From positions 64,001 to 128,000 of the forward strand of contig JBFWWG010000007.1 in assembly GCA_050246315.1 (NCBI GenBank): DNA of 64,000 bases. The letters run 5' to 3'. A program made the position numbers and the translations under genes. The notes under the pieces were generated by a model. The model searched no databases. It saw only the letters and a list, made by a program, of their open reading frames with translations, and had not been told where the DNA came from. This document shows positions 28,657 through 33,483 of this stretch, piece after piece. Every line of letters starts with the position of its first letter. The first letter of the stretch is position 1. Source of the DNA: Nitrospiraceae bacterium. Lineage in GTDB: Bacteria; Nitrospirota; Nitrospiria; Nitrospirales; Nitrospiraceae.

Positions 28657-28793
28657 GTCGCTCAGTCGTTTACAGGAAGGAGTCAGGAGCGTCAAGACAA
28701 GTTTGAGGCTGACAGGATTGAGGCGAATGAAATTATGGCCGGTTGCTTTCCGAGAGCGGCGTTGGGCATACTAGATCCCGAAAGGGCAGACCA

Positions 28794-29033
28794 ATGACCA
28801 GCGAACGTTGTCTCGTTCAGGACTGTACCGCCCGACCCTATGCGCCGGCAGGCACGGGCGCGATCTGTAAGCCGCATTTCATCGATTTCCTGACATGGCG
28901 CCGCCGCCGCGGGCTTCAGATGTTTCTGAAATACGCCGGCATGACCATGCCCGAGCGCGATGTGATCGTCGAAGAATGGCGCAAGACCGTCAAGGTCGAA
29001 GAAGCGCCGATCGCCCCGACTGCAAAACCCTGA
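28794..29033 (+). CDS. Small hypothetical protein with C-x4-C...C-x2-H motif
   Basis: MTSERCLVQDC...ICKPH; AAAGGG upstream. Confidence 0.6.
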   Translation: MTSERCLVQDCTARPYAPAGTGAICKPHFIDFLTWRRRRGLQMFLKYAGMTMPERDVIVEEWRKTVKVEEAPIAPTAKP

Positions 29034-29212
29034 GTCGTCCGCCCCGTTGGTTTACTTCTCTCCGTCGAACTGTACCTCACGCCCTGATTGTCCCCCTCTT
29101 CCCAAAGCAGACGTATTTGTGGCAAACGAAGCCGCAGGGCAATGCAAGTCGTTCGCGGCAGGCACAGGAACTAAACGTATCTGATGGAACGCTGGCGACG
29201 CCACCGATCACC

Positions 29213-32200
29213 CTACCGTTGGCCTTCGTCACCAACACCGTCGCCTGACTTGTCGTCGTACTCGTCATAGCTCCTGTTTCGCATTTCCTTTCTGGACTCA
29301 GCGCGCCGCTGTTCCGATGCAATCCTGAGGTCGAGTTCTGCGATATGACTTTCGGCGAACGCCCTAACCGTGGACCTTTCATCTGTTAGCCATTCTGTCA
29401 ATGATTCCTTCCTGGCCTGCAATGCTTCTGAAAAGCCAAATTCTCCCCTTACAACTCCAGTGTTGTCGATACTGACCCGGACCTCGTTCAATTTGTGCTG
29501 GTCATCTGGAAACCGCGACACAATTTCCTTCAACACAACGTGGACAGAAGTCACACCGTCATAGTTCTGCAGTATCGCCAGCGCGAAATCTGCCTCCGTA
29601 TCACCGCCGGTTTTTACCAAGTCGGCAAGTGCGGTAGCGAACTCCGGAGTGCAGTTGGTGAACACATTGCTAAGCAGGCGCCCCCCCTCGAAACTGGAAA
29701 AGCCTTCGGTCTTGAGTGAACCACGATAGCCCTTTGCTGATTGCGAGCGACGGGTTCTTCGAGAGCTCCTTTTCAAGGCCATGGAACTGAAACGGCACCG
29801 CCTCGAAGCGATCTTCGTCCTCACCGTCAGCGGCCTCATGGGAAAGCCGAACTCCGAAATAGTCCCAGACTGCCTCTGGCTGGCGATCGGCAAGCCGGAC
29901 CAAGACACGCTCGGCTTTATAGTTTAGCCTGCGAAGATAGCCCAGATTTTTCAAGAGCTGCACCGTCACCTCCTGGGTAAGTTCCTCATAGAACTTCGTG
30001 GCCTTCTGCAGAAACCACCCTTGCGAGACCCAACTCGGGTCTTTTCGGTCATTTAGAAAGGCCAGGGCGTCACGCACGAACGTGTCTGGGTCTGCGATCT
30101 TCTCCGTTCCGTAATGCTCCAAAGCGAAGAGCAGGCATTCAATGACAGCTGTTTGGTCGCCTTTTTCAATCGCGCGTTTCAGTAGGCGAGTAGCGAAATC
30201 GGGCCTCTTCACATCGGAGTACCGCAGGTGCCGTGCTAGGCCAGTGAGGTTTTTGGCAGACTCAAGCTCACTCTCCAAGATCCGCTCATAAATATCAGCT
30301 CGGCTGCCCACAGCGAGTCCATTGAGGAAGCCAGCAAGAAAGATGCGTAGGTCATCCGAGGCCTTTGCTAAAAACCTGTCAGCTACTTCGGGCTTGCTCT
30401 CAGCCAGCTTGCTGATGAAATTGCCGAAAACCGGGAAGGTGGCAAGATCGCTCGACCTCGTTTGCGCGCAACGCTCTACCAGGTCGAACCAGTCGTTCTC
30501 ATTCTCCGGGTTGATCTCATCGATGTAGCGGTCAGCTTCACTATGCCGATATTGGTCGGCTCTTTCTAGTTCGAACTCCTCGTCGGTCCAGTGATCTGGA
30601 TAAGCAGATTCAAAGCCTACCAGGACTTTATATCGGACAAACCGATCATCGGTGTTGATTGTGTCTCGAAACCTAAAGATGGCAGCCACGAGTGCCATGG
30701 CTTCGGCCTGACAACCGAACCGATTGCCCGAGTCTTCTGTAAGACCCTTCACCCTGAAATAGTCGTAGAGGAAGCGGTGCTCTAAGTGCTGAAGCAGCTC
30801 GTAGCTCATCACGCCAGCGCGTTCCAACACGAAGTTAACAATGCGTGTGGCATCCTTGAGCGTGATGGACAAGAGCTCATTAGAATATTGCCCTCGATGG
30901 GGAGTCCTTGTTGCGGCGTCCAGCGATGAAAGAACTGCGCGCTTCTGTACATCGTCGGTCGATCTATCATAGGCTGCGAAAAGGACTTTGATTGCCTTGT
31001 CGCGCACTTCTCTGAGCTGATCGGATGCGGGCACGGCGCCTGTGCTAAAGACTACGGAGTCTGCCTTCCACTTTGTGCCGCTGATGTCTGATTGAATCGC
31101 TTCGGTCCAGACGGCAAGAGCGATGGGCCGGATCTTGTCCATCTCGACCTCGTTCATTTGAGCGAGGTGATCTACCAATGCCATCTGAAGCCTCGGCCCT
31201 ACCTGGTTGTACGCGTCGATGTTGTACTCGGACAGCTTCTTGACGGCGTTCACAATCTGCTGGCGAATGGCTTCGCTTGGCTCGTCCCGATAGATGTCGA
31301 TAAGCAGTTGCAGAGTTCCAACTATGTCGGCGTAGCGCAGATTCTCAACGATCTCCACGACAAGTCTCGTCACTGAATCGGCCTTGAAGCCCTCCATATT
31401 TCCGTAGGTCGTTTCCATCGGAACGGGCTCCGTGGCGCGCGCCGCTTTAACAGACCTCAGCAGAGGGCCTTTCAATGCCTCAAAGGCAGCCGGGAGGTCG
31501 TCGTAATTGGGAATGGCGTAATCTTTCAGTCCTGACAGAATCTCGTAACGCTCGTTGTTGTTCTGCGCATTGTCCAGCAGGTTGGCGATATCTTTGTCGA
31601 AGAGCTCCTTGCCTTGGAGGAGCCGTTCATATTCCTGCTGGGCTTTCTGAAACTCATATCCAGCCGGGATCAGATACTTGTCCATGATCCGAGCAAATCG
31701 GCTGGCGATACCTTTCATGGCTTTCTCGCCGTAGCCTTCGCCCAGCTTGTTCTTGTAGACGATGTCGTGTGAGGTCTCGGACCAAGCGTGCTCCAGAATG
31801 GTTTGGACCTGAATTTCGCACCGCAGGCCAGCGAATCTCGCATATTCTGGAAGGCGTAAGCGATCCTCGCGAAGCCGGACCGTGTAGTGAATTGCGCGAT
31901 ATTGCGCTCCTTGGTTCTCCGGGGTGGGGTGGTGGATCCTGGTCGAGTTCTCCTCGATCTCGAAATTTTCGTGAAATAGTGGTGAGGCCACGAAACGGTC
32001 AACATCATTGTTGGTGTAGAAGATAAGCCGGGCGCCGGCGAGATCGCGCCGGTCACGGTCCAGCGTCTGTGTATCCATTTTGCCGTCCTCAGCTAGGCGG
32101 CGCCGTAGACTTTCGATCCCTTTTGCACGGCACTGAACTGACTGAGGCCGGGGCAGGTTTGAGGCAGCTAGCAACGCCTTCTCCAAGATGAAGCGGACCG

Positions 32201-32258
32201 TTTCAGCAAAGGCTTCATAGGTCCCAAAATACTTCTTTTCGTAGTCGTTAAGGTTCAC
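29213..32258 (-). pseudogene. RelA/SpoT synthetase-domain protein with long helical C-terminus; frameshifted at a G7 run (29681-29687)
   Basis: Synthetase motifs RAKGIES, DLAGARLI, YRAIHY, EIQVQT, HAWSETSHDIVYK. ORF 29670-32258 ends FQFRGGAPA*; removing one G gives FQFRGGRLLSNVF... continuing to the stop at 29213 (1014 aa). Could be a sequencing error or a phase-variable state. Confidence 0.8.
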
Positions 32259-32527
32259 GACACTCAGATTTCGCTTCGAAGTTCATTCAGCACAATCACC
32301 GACGACCGGAGGAGCGTGCGTACGTCTGAAGCTAACACGGCGCACCTTGGTGGCTTGAGCGCCGTATAGAGTCACGTCCGCTTCTGGTCGATAGGGACCA
32401 TCCCCGGAAGAGTCGCCGCGTGGTGTTCAATACCGCATAACTATAAGTCTGCTGCAGCCTCCCCGTGCAGCCTAGCACGGTGCCCTCTACTACTCCTCCC
32501 CGCTCAGGCGAAGCGGCCATGTAGGCT

Positions 32528-33075
32528 CCCACTGCGCGTGTCCAACGAGGCCCTGCGTTCCTTCTCACCCGCCCCCCCGTGGCGCCGATACGCCACGTTT
32601 CCCGCAGGGCGCGCGTTGCACGAGCCGACTCCAAATATAACGTTCCTTCCAAGCTTGCTCGTCGTCTCGTTCTACCGGAAGGACACTCGTGCTGGTCCCA
32701 CTGCGGCCATCGAATGACTCTAATGTGCTCCTTCCAAGCTTGCTCACTGATATTCTTTCAGCAGGTAACTGGTAGGGTCTGAACTGCGCGCATCGAGGGA
32801 GCACATTCCGATCGTGCGGCCTCTGCGAGCATAGACCCTACCAGTTACCTCGCCCCTTCTCCGCGGACTCTGGTAGCAAGGGATCGGCATGAGTGTCCTT
32901 CCACTTCCTCTTCCTGCGCGTTCTGCGAGCACGGAAGGCAGACCGACCGCCAGACTTACCCTTTCACTACTTCAGTCGGGTGAGCTGGCTCATGCCCTCC
33001 TATTGCGCGCATCGAGGGAGCACATTCCGATCGTGCGGCCTCTGCGAGCACGGGAGGGCATGAGCCTGATCACCC
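32528..33075. repeat. Cluster of nested palindromic/direct repeats (REP/BIME-like)
   Basis: Identical 47-nt core at 32785-32831 and 33004-33050, each closed by a different perfect stem; 17-nt direct repeat TCCTTCCAAGCTTGCTC at 32644 and 32729; partial cores at ~32530, ~32700, ~32915. Confidence 0.85.
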
Positions 33076-33084
33076 TCCCCTTTC

Positions 33085-33483
33085 TCACCCACCTCCCATC
33101 ACCGGGCTTCCATGATGGTGGATCATCAACCACTCATCCCCCACGCGCTCAAATAAGTTGGTCGCCAGAATCTTGGTCTGCACGGTGGCATCGTCCTGCT
33201 TGGTCGTCAGGTTCTCCGTGCAAATTACCCAGGCCACATCGCCGGCGACCTGGACCTCGACATCGGTCAATTCGAACTTCATGTCGAAGGTGTGGTTGAA
33301 AATCAGCACCCAAGAATCCCGCACCGCCGGCCAGCCTGAACGGAGTCCCCATCCGGGATGGATGCAGGTGACATAGTCTTGCTGGAGCCAGATCTTGTCC
33401 ATCTGCGTGATATCGAGGCTCTCGAAGGCTTCGTAAAACGCCTGGTTGACGCGCGCCACTTCTTCAATCCGTTGTTCAATCAT
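33085..33483 (-). CDS. SnoaL/NTF2-like protein
   Basis: NQAFYEAFESLD, VTCIHPGW, GWPAVRDSW, ATNLFER, WLMIHHHGS. Confidence 0.88.
   Translation of the reverse strand: MIEQRIEEVARVNQAFYEAFESLDITQMDKIWLQQDYVTCIHPGWGLRSGWPAVRDSWVLIFNHTFDMKFELTDVEVQVAGDVAWVICTENLTTKQDDATVQTKILATNLFERVGDEWLMIHHHGSPVMGGG

Follow-up and report, generated by a model that had tools for sequence, protein, structure and literature searches.

A mobile synthetase-solenoid protein from a Nitrospiraceae genome: a candidate single-polypeptide phage defence family whose solenoid also accompanies PIN and SIR2 partners

The window analyzed here, a stretch of 64,000 nucleotides from a Nitrospiraceae bacterium (NCBI GenBank assembly GCA_050246315.1, contig JBFWWG010000007.1, positions 64,001 to 128,000), carries on its minus strand, at 29213-32258, a gene that joins a small alarmone synthetase (SAS) domain to a long alpha-solenoid. 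We consider it probable that the family to which this gene belongs is an apparently undescribed, mobile phage defence system that acts by abortive infection and is contained in a single polypeptide. The main new result is the existence of the same solenoid as a stand-alone protein with a PIN_12 or SIR2 partner. More tentatively, and with slightly less than even confidence, the fused and paired forms could together make up an undescribed immune superfamily, in which one ~720-aa solenoid sensor would govern three suicide effectors (a fused RelQ-like SAS, a PIN_12 RNase encoded by the upstream gene, and a Thoeris/DSR-type SIR2 NADase likewise encoded upstream), a clasp beside the acceptor loop of the synthetase would be opened by a ligand in the solenoid ring, and the resulting (p)ppGpp burst would come from a dedicated immune enzyme, not from the stringent response.

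The stand-alone solenoid is found in two plasmid records, from Legionella adelaidensis and Pseudanabaena galeata, that match the solenoid part only; in both, an ~805-aa “hypothetical protein” comes 2 nt after a PIN-domain gene (Pfam PIN_12; pairs at L098:4766-8187 and L099:4610-8061). Aligned to the SAS-solenoid family profile with hhalign, the Legionella protein gives a probability of 100% and an E-value of 4.9e-89 over 689 columns, covering family residues 293-1001 with the terminal helix included. Relatives of the ~805-aa protein fall into 43 clusters, uniformly ~800 aa long and without any Pfam domain, the one exception being a 1,021-aa form that bears RelA_SpoT. A profile built from 15 stand-alone relatives (A2) retrieves both halves of the window gene from its genome (E 5.9e-105 and 2.8e-39) and nothing else, and retrieves 61 loci from metagenomes (L100-L160). 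At 47 of these, the solenoid gene begins where a same-strand open reading frame (ORF) of 200 aa or longer stops; most of the remaining 14 are without upstream sequence. The upstream gene encodes PIN_12 in 35 of the 47 (27 above the curated cut-off), SIR2_2 in six and a protein with no Pfam match in another six, counts that overstate independence because of near-duplicate loci (for example, L130/L131, L104/L108, and L152/L153). The PIN_12 and SIR2_2 partners are 310-410 aa long. In a FastTree phylogeny of 70 solenoid modules (794 columns, midpoint root), the 41 stand-alone forms all lie apart from the 29 synthetase-fused forms, and the four SIR2-paired forms make up one subclade within the PIN-paired diversity.

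That a single scaffold goes with three enzymes of unrelated kinds, two of them standard effectors of immunity, follows the pattern seen in modular defence systems. Judged from sequence relationships, this effector swapping marks the solenoid as the probable common sensor or regulator and the synthetase as the probable effector; the PIN-solenoid and SIR2-solenoid operons are themselves candidate defence systems. The three SIR2 partners that we scanned match the PADLOC models for ThsA (~92-95 bits), LmuA, and Dsr, while nine of 10 solenoid proteins and all five PIN partners scanned match no PADLOC v2 model. With three interchangeable effectors on one shared solenoid, nature would in effect have set up a test of how a single sensor scaffold governs enzymes of unrelated kinds, and the arrangement also gives a handle for finding the trigger. 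As a separate observation, the Pseudanabaena solenoid (L099:5653-8058) weakly matches OloA of Olokun (28 bits, E 3e-7, residues 401-667), which could be a distant link to a known defence system of unknown mechanism. Relatedness of the PIN partner to the SAS-solenoid profile was rejected (probability 0.2%), and a 1,021-aa neighbour in L099 proved unrelated.

The window gene and its surroundings are laid out as follows, in window coordinates:

29213-32258, minus strand: the whole SAS-solenoid gene (~1,015 codons), present as two ORFs with a +1 frameshift; full-length relatives have 1,008-1,018 aa
29670-32258, minus strand: ORF A, 862 aa
29213-29908, minus strand: ORF B, 231 aa, overlapping ORF A in another frame
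31614-32258, minus strand: SAS (RelA/SpoT synthetase) domain, residues 1-215, of which 31746-32129 is the PF04607 part
29670-31613, minus strand: linker helix followed by HEAT/ARM-like alpha-solenoid, together residues 216-859 (frame A), closed by a TAG stop at 29670-29672 after three out-of-frame codons
29681-29687, minus strand: run of seven G (seven C on the plus strand), the +1 frameshift site, read in the sequence itself
29213-29680, minus strand: C-terminal ~155 residues in frame B including the stop codon, with the last solenoid repeats and the terminal helix, from the ORF B translation
29267-29401, minus strand: long conserved C-terminal helix (LTEWL...IASEQRRAE...), coordinates computed from the ORF B frame
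29035-32500, no strand: strain-specific cargo segment holding this gene only, from flank comparison with sister genomes and the GC dip

Pfam finds PF04607 (RelA_SpoT) as the sole domain of the window protein, at residues 44-171 with 41.3 bits against a cut-off of 27, and no HD, TGS, or ACT domain; this agrees with a preliminary description of the window, made from the letters and translations alone, which had noted synthetase motifs without a hydrolase, TGS, or ACT domain. The motifs, including the YRAIH and EIQVQT variants singled out in that description, can be read directly in ORF A as R44-x-K46-xxx-S50, D72-LAG-x-R77, Y120-RAIH124, E148-IQVQT153, and H164-xxx-Y168-K, with G75 and Q150 also present. 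We take these to be the motifs named RxKxxxS, DxxGxR, G-loop Y..H, EIQ, and HxxxYK in the literature on RelA/SpoT homologues. Eight residues (R44, K46, D72, R77, E148, Q150, H164, and Y168) are invariant in 114 full-length relatives of 27-80% identity, so that selection evidently keeps the enzyme active family-wide. NCBIfam adds only a weak YjbM match, and PADLOC a single model, the candidate PDC-S33 (50.6 bits, E 4.8e-14), at the level of the domain. By fold, residues 2-215 match RelQ best (5dec, Z 17.2, root-mean-square deviation (rmsd) 2.6, 184 residues aligned), followed by RelP (6ewz, Z 16.6), with RelQ and RelP structures together spanning Z 16.0-17.2 and rmsd 2.5-2.9; Bacillus subtilis Rel (Z 13.8), RelA (10.9), CapRel (10.3-11.5), and Tas1 (6ox6, 9.3) match less well. 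The family profile likewise finds RelP (E 3.7e-14) and RelQ among PDB chains, and no chain of CapRel, FaRel2, or Tas1 at E<=1. By sequence, then, the enzyme is classed as a small alarmone synthetase of the RelA/SpoT superfamily, RelQ/RelP-like; CapRel, which the preliminary description named as a user of this domain in phage defence, is the more distant match. A canonical long Rel is encoded elsewhere in the same genome.

Since the domain lies nearer to RelQ/RelP than CapRel, targeting of tRNA is not what one would expect by default. The second motif is DLAGxR; the third has A-x-H rather than S-x-H, retaining the His of the guanosine type; the fourth, EIQVQT, is of neither the “IR” nor the “YH” type, Gln replacing the Arg of EIQIRT. 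According to the published work on exported toxins (PMC12226406), “SxH” is the guanosine-type signature and “GxN” that of the Apk2 (p)ppApp synthetases. The motifs and the nearness to RelQ and RelP in profile and fold tip the balance somewhat toward (p)ppGpp as the product; pyrophosphorylation of tRNA 3' ends is a lesser possibility, and (p)ppApp synthesis a slightly weaker one still. A role as an exported interbacterial toxin of the Tas1/Apk type appears very improbable. RelA/SpoT-fold toxins are used in this way (PMC12226406 and PMC12691689), and both Tas1 and an exported Streptomyces SAS (8vx3, Z 10.1) are among the fold matches, but the enzyme is N-terminal where polymorphic toxins have a C-terminal toxin, Pfam finds no trafficking domain, no conserved immunity gene adjoins, and the third-motif His is that of the guanosine type and not the GxN of Apk2.

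A separate set of ~60 loci in IMG/VR (L037-L096) encodes proteins of ~350-375 aa, in which a RelQ-like SAS domain, 25-39% identical to that of the window (48% in one 33-residue fragment match), is followed by an uncharacterized tail of ~170 aa. Five of these proteins that were scanned give PF04607 scores of 69-87 bits, their best PDB match is RelQ, and PDC-S33 matches them at the enzyme domain only. These proteins, from viral or prophage contigs, possibly form a further fused SAS family belonging to prophages, where RelQ-like synthetases with assorted tails seem to be common. The name “NitRel”, for a Nitrospirae-specific SAS subfamily, has no occurrence in the main text of PMC7229694 and is not used here.

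The tail of the window protein, which the preliminary description had correctly called long and helical, was modelled through an intact relative (P0004, 83% identical to the window protein), with the alignment of the 114 relatives as AlphaFold2 input. The model is of high quality (predicted local distance difference test score (pLDDT) 95.5, predicted template modelling score 0.88), consists nearly entirely of helices beyond residue 178, and forms a HEAT/ARM-like alpha-solenoid over residues ~220-1007. Foldseek and VIA match the solenoid to karyopherins, CAND1, and the PP2A A subunit at Z 10-12, a level that between helical repeats denotes a shared fold class only. The earlier idea of a STAND/Avs-like tail is not borne out: Pfam, NCBIfam, and PADLOC find no NTPase domain in the window protein, and the model passes from the SAS domain through a long helix directly into the solenoid. 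Conservation peaks in the catalytic core (residues 126-175) and again at 926-1000, a block that overlaps the terminal helix (965-1007 in the model), and is lowest at 501-525 and 651-775. Searches of the ESM Atlas with the solenoid reached scores of 0.85-0.86, below the 0.9 needed, and give leads only. We discarded as chance-level the matches to Tape_meas_lam_C (E 0.041), DruE (E 0.0015), PqqD (E 0.031), a HET-s “small S protein” (E 0.005), and IKK-beta (E 0.028).

A complex model of the SAS domain (residues 1-220) with C-terminal residues 860-1015, the piece severed by the frameshift, gives an interface score (ipSAE) of 0.70 (0.69-0.71 in three runs), whereas the best of three controls scores 0.00. 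The mark applied to this score is reached by 116 of 157 solved complexes and by two of 215 mismatched pairs, counts that are rough here, a custom alignment having been used. The runs share at least 94% of contacts, and the partner has a pLDDT of at least 81. In the model, helix 972-998 (with the conserved IAxEQRRAE) touches residues 83, 103-113, and 197-205 of the SAS domain, among them the nearly invariant H109, P111, P198, and G200 and the invariant A199; residues 103-113 immediately precede the G-loop tyrosine, Y120. The modelling thus favours a closed-ring arrangement that would have the C-terminal helix clasp the enzyme beside, and not inside, the acceptor site. By analogy with CapRel, the clasp may inhibit the enzyme. 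The autoinhibitory tail of the preliminary description accordingly fares in two ways: the predicted docking fits a regulatory tail, while the catalytic residues are not contacted.

From these elements we propose the following mechanism. The N-terminal RelQ/RelP-like SAS would be the effector, and the ~800-aa HEAT/ARM-like solenoid both sensor and regulator. In the resting state the solenoid would close into a ring, its C-terminal helix clasping the SAS domain beside the acceptor-nucleotide loop and keeping the enzyme inactive. Binding of a ligand, either derived from the phage or induced by infection, to the solenoid would open the clasp; the freed enzyme would then move pyrophosphate from ATP to its acceptor, most likely making (p)ppGpp and less likely (p)ppApp or pyrophosphorylated tRNA 3' ends, and the infected cell would be arrested.

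The family is not the orphan that the preliminary description supposed. A search of 1.84 billion cluster representatives returned 5,545 matches at E<=1e-3, of which 671 (clusters at 50% identity) have E<=1e-30, and the ~1,000-aa architecture is maintained down to 27% identity. Its distribution is patchy, with the gene in four of 61 related genomes (that of the window included) and in none of the three other genomes of the genus. Proteins of 75-86% identity occur in Nitrospira, Gallionella, Sedimenticola, other Gammaproteobacteria, a cyanobacterial metagenome-assembled genome (MAG), and Desulfuromonadales; such identity across phyla bespeaks recent horizontal transfer. Sequence comparison thus identifies the gene as accessory and horizontally mobile, and not as the vertically inherited core gene that the preliminary description had named as the opposing picture. 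Rhizobium rhizogenes and Sphingobium plasmids carry full-length copies, of 67.6% and 30% identity, respectively. In IMG/VR there are three full-length members and a partial one: L034 and L035 sit directly next to a P4-type integrase, their element also having an AAA_25 replication protein, and the partial copy (L036) lies on a contig with capsid, cement, and tail-tube genes. P4-like satellites carry an anti-phage hotspot between psu and int (PMC9122126). A collection of named phage genomes gives one weak match, to the SAS domain.

Two rival accounts of the family's role bear on this distribution. The protein could be a physiological, non-immune alarmone synthetase, its solenoid binding a cellular partner or metabolite and tuning (p)ppGpp under stress, in the manner of a RelQ or RelP that has gained a regulatory domain. 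This would suit the nearness of the enzyme to RelQ/RelP in profile (RelP at 3.7e-14) and fold (Z 16.8 and 16.6 versus 10.3 for CapRel and 9.3 for Tas1), the conserved solenoid with its few indels, and the ordinary genes that make up most neighbours at several loci. We nonetheless regard it as unlikely, given the patchy occurrence (4/61) with 75-86% identity across phyla, the copies in prophage, integrative and conjugative element (ICE), plasmid, and integrase-adjacent positions, the frequent breakage of copies, and the pairing of the same solenoid with PIN and defence-type SIR2 proteins, which are not stress-signalling enzymes. Alternatively, the same sensor-effector logic could serve conflicts not aimed at phages, such as the addiction or stabilization of mobile islands, or competition between mobile elements such as plasmids. 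Copies on plasmids, an ICE, and integrative islands, copies beside toxin-antitoxin pairs, and the solitary weak SAS-domain match among named phage genomes would all accord with this second account, which we also hold to be improbable: a single fused polypeptide lacks the logic of a labile antitoxin, viral contigs of IMG/VR contain three full-length copies plus a partial one (one contig with capsid and tail genes), and integrase-adjacent cargo sites are anti-phage hotspots in P4-like satellites (PMC9122126). Phage defence stays our preferred reading, and the one-gene anti-phage sensor-effector of the preliminary description survives as a candidate, on the strength of mobility, the hotspot position, the lack of a partner gene, the PIN/SIR2 pairing, and the modelled docking of the C-terminal helix, though shorn of its orphan status and STAND/Avs-like tail, and with a synthetase nearer to RelQ/RelP than to CapRel.

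As side observations on the family, two members (P0060, 1,088 aa, and P0246, 1,108 aa) have an ~80-aa N-terminal extension of XRE-type helix-turn-helix character, for which the precomputed Pfam annotation of P0060 lists HTH_3 and Phage_CI_repr; either this is a true fusion or a mis-called start has swallowed an upstream regulator. The ~780-aa proteins P0122, P0131, P0180, P0213, and P0167 were considered as solenoids fused to other N-terminal domains and set aside, as they look like split or truncated gene halves.

Among known systems, CapRel is the natural comparison: it too combines in one chain an N-terminal RelA/SpoT-type effector with a C-terminal regulatory or sensor part, and mobile elements carry it. 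In this fused toxic SAS (toxSAS), which is autoinhibited, the active site is blocked until a capsid protein binds, and the C-terminal element docks back on the enzyme (PMC9712102), as is predicted for the SAS-solenoid protein; the CapRel fold (e.g. CapRel-SJ46, 7ZTB) matches the SAS domain at Z 10.3-11.5 (rmsd 3.7-3.9, 177-178 residues aligned). However, CapRel is ~370 aa long, with a pseudo-zinc-finger antitoxin domain and a YXXY plug (PMC9712102), whereas the SAS-solenoid protein has ~1,015 aa and an ~800-aa solenoid; CapRel pyrophosphorylates tRNA, whereas the synthetase of the SAS-solenoid protein is nearer to RelQ/RelP; and the predicted clasp of the SAS-solenoid protein stays out of the ATP site. 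RelQ and RelP (5DEC, 6EWZ, and 6FGK) are the best matches in sequence and fold and have the same catalytic motifs, but they are ~210-aa stand-alone housekeeping enzymes of Firmicutes, in contrast to the fused, mobile, and patchy SAS-solenoid family.

DSR2 offers a parallel in logic and size, as a single protein of ~1,000 aa in which an N-terminal effector enzyme is followed by an alpha-solenoid C-terminal domain that binds a phage protein, with activation by a tail tube protein (PMC11850899). Its effector is SIR2 and not a synthetase; SIR2 occurs in our family only as a separate partner of stand-alone solenoids, these partners weakly matching Dsr1/Dsr2 models. DSR2 and the SAS-solenoid protein share a fold class, the alpha-solenoid, which does not imply homology. 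No DSR2 chain is among the 50 matches listed by each of Foldseek, a second VIA look, and a wide VIA search, which is no evidence that the folds differ, the model being long for sensitive single-domain searches. PANGU type I resembles the proposed system in using an alarmone-making SAS effector that is inert until activated: its Pag1B/GRel toxSAS makes pppGpp and aborts infection (bioRxiv 10.64898/2026.04.06.716658). It differs in having two genes, with Pag1A, a nucleoid-associated protein (NAP), as the sensor and an SAS that ends in a small acidic domain, where the SAS-solenoid gene has no partner and a fused solenoid. The PDC-S33 profile is matched at positions 60-211 of 349 only, that is, in the synthetase domain, and our literature search found no paper that names this model. 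The exported toxins Tas1 and Apk2 have an N-terminal trafficking domain, a C-terminal toxin, and an adjacent immunity gene, none of which was found for the SAS-solenoid gene. The SAS-solenoid protein belongs to neither the CapRel nor the DSR2 family. We found no description of a RelA/SpoT-solenoid protein or of a PIN-solenoid or SIR2-solenoid pair in the literature searched, subscription journals and bioRxiv supplements lying outside the search. Beyond the domain-level match to PDC-S33, PADLOC-DB v2 likewise has no entry for the family or for these pairs. If our proposal is right, this is a large and structurally well-defined single-gene immune family with a RelQ-type synthetase as killing or arresting effector, and a third immune use of RelA/SpoT enzymes, beside tRNA-targeting CapRel and pppGpp-making PANGU.

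The window copy of the gene is itself broken. A tblastn search of its own genome recovers it as two pieces; the C-terminal string quoted in the preliminary description, LTEWLTDERSTVRAFAESHIAELDLRIASEQRRAE, is located in ORF B, which aligns to the C-termini of the intact relatives P0003 and P0004. Intact relatives of ~1,014 aa read ...LFQFRGGRLLS... at the frame junction, and where their G run is unbroken it has six G, versus seven in the window, so that the window carries one extra G. The frameshift suspected earlier is therefore this single nucleotide at 29681-29687, and it deletes residues ~860-1015, the clasp helix included. The extra G appears in the same sequence, without gaps, in contigs from three DNA runs of three studies, which are flagged as possible sources of this assembly; over the entire stretch they show not one letter of difference, and a contig from an RNA library (29513-29693) runs across the tract with identical sequence. 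Because it recurs in all three DNA runs and in the RNA contig, we judge the frameshift real, present in the DNA itself and no artefact of a single assembly. RNA contigs cover 22 of 30 bins over the gene, all within 29252-32240, with the other eight bins uncovered in run X15; this coverage weakly suggests continued transcription of the broken gene. A promoter scan (two sites versus 1.8 expected) was uninformative.

The junction pattern is found in nine of 13 related loci examined, with Gly-Gly codons that vary among GGAGGA, GGTGGG (three loci), GGGGGA (two), GGGGGG (two), and GGCGGT; an unbroken G6 occurs in just two of the nine. By this comparison the G tract appears not to be conserved among relatives, which argues against a programmed site. 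The window copy is most likely inactive, a pseudogene, or at best the “off” state of a slippage-prone tract. Persistence of the G7 allele unchanged in samples of several studies means that the truncated product is evidently tolerated. We give low probability to the tract working as a switch, with slippage in replication (phase variation), in transcription, or in translation (+1) restoring some full-length protein. The break does fall exactly in a seven-G homopolymer, RNA contigs lie over both frames (29252 to 32240), and the frameshifted allele persists in samples of several studies, but the Gly-Gly codons vary with unbroken G6 in only 2/9 loci, no contig compared shows an indel variant (though contigs conceal minority variants), and the relatives P0002, P0011, P0026, and P0092 are broken elsewhere, as expected of decay or assembly error. 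Those four close relatives go out of frame at other positions, within the last ~200 residues. Further broken loci include L027 (two pieces), L029 (three pieces), L028 (interrupted by an IS200-like transposase), and, also listed, L003, and a 31%-identical copy in genome G060 has one in-frame TGA. The relatives are broken either because a costly gene has decayed or because GC-rich MAGs were misassembled.

The family was located at 15 genome-contig loci, with flanks that could be annotated in 13. One copy (L026) shares its island with PDC-S70, an M78 peptidase, and an effector of the CBASS Cap4-SAVED type (631 bits), and another (L029), the three-piece gene just mentioned, lies near an integrase and a PD-T4-6-like kinase. 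L016, L017, and L018 occupy another shared site, where two of them have BrnT/BrnA nearby; L019 comes after a Gp49/HTH pair, L023 lies between portal-like and terminase genes, L024 adjoins TraU/DUF1525, and L020, L022, and L030 have no telling context. We discounted generic PADLOC matches among the neighbours (RecN to mad3/LmuB, OmpA to ZorB, a sigma-54 activator to RtcR, and a LuxR regulator to CARF3). An all-against-all comparison of 531 ORFs within 3 kb of 16 copies found no neighbour family recurring across independent contexts, shared neighbours being confined to the two synteny groups. The defence context that the preliminary description looked for in homologues is thus present at L026 and L029, while the other 11 of the 13 loci have no clear PADLOC defence neighbours.

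Several of our results weigh against phage defence as the role of this family. Clear PADLOC defence neighbours occur at only 2/13 loci, and the family is absent from PADLOC-DB v2 apart from the domain-level PDC-S33 match. The solenoid is almost without indels and its C-terminal part is well conserved, whereas the sensor of CapRel evolves fast. The modelled clasp misses the catalytic residues, so the contact could be purely structural, and the substrate signals are mixed, with EIQVQT in place of EIQIRT and A-x-H in place of S-x-H. The account of the window copy is weakened, too, by the provenance of the DNA runs behind the frameshift check, as possible sources of this very assembly, and by the capacity of contigs to conceal minority variants at the G7 tract.

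In the window, the gene is the sole cargo of a 3.5-kb segment (29035 to ~32500) that interrupts a run of housekeeping genes. GC content is 0.51-0.56 in the seven 500-nt bins of 29000-32499 and ~0.59-0.63 in most flanking bins, and the neighbours encode PhoD phosphatase, SnoaL-like, EamA, methyltransferase, M32 peptidase, ThiC, Thi4, and GcvT proteins; the preliminary description was right both on the AT-richness and on the gene standing alone among housekeeping genes. On one side of the hotspot is a small conserved gene (28743-29033), on the other the SnoaL-like gene (33085-33483). The former encodes 79-96 aa with a Cys/His-rich N-terminus and has no Pfam match. In the sister genome G002 (locus L032), the flanks are 95-97% identical and the cargo is a MazF/PemK-RHH (ribbon-helix-helix) pair with an unknown 319-aa protein; in G001 (L031), the cargo comprises a hydrolase, a fragment of a BsuBI/PstI restriction enzyme, an IS5 transposase, an Mrr-type nuclease, and an IS200-like transposase of the REP-associated tyrosine transposase (RAYT) type. 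One run (X1) yields a second contig (depth 36 versus 8.8) that departs from the window sequence exactly at 29034 and continues with G002-type sequence, so strains with different hotspot cargo co-exist in one sample. The locus thereby marks a strain-variable hotspot with cargo differing between co-existing strains, in an environmentally important nitrifier lineage whose phage defence has been little studied. There is no tRNA gene in the window, and no direct repeats flank the insert.

The intergenic region upstream of the gene (32640-33075) is made up of short palindromic and direct repeats, including a 47-nt exact repeat at 32785 and 33004 and the hairpins I1-I6. These repeats recur in many places in genomes of the genus (tens of short matches); they look REP-like, consistent with the RAYT transposase in G001.

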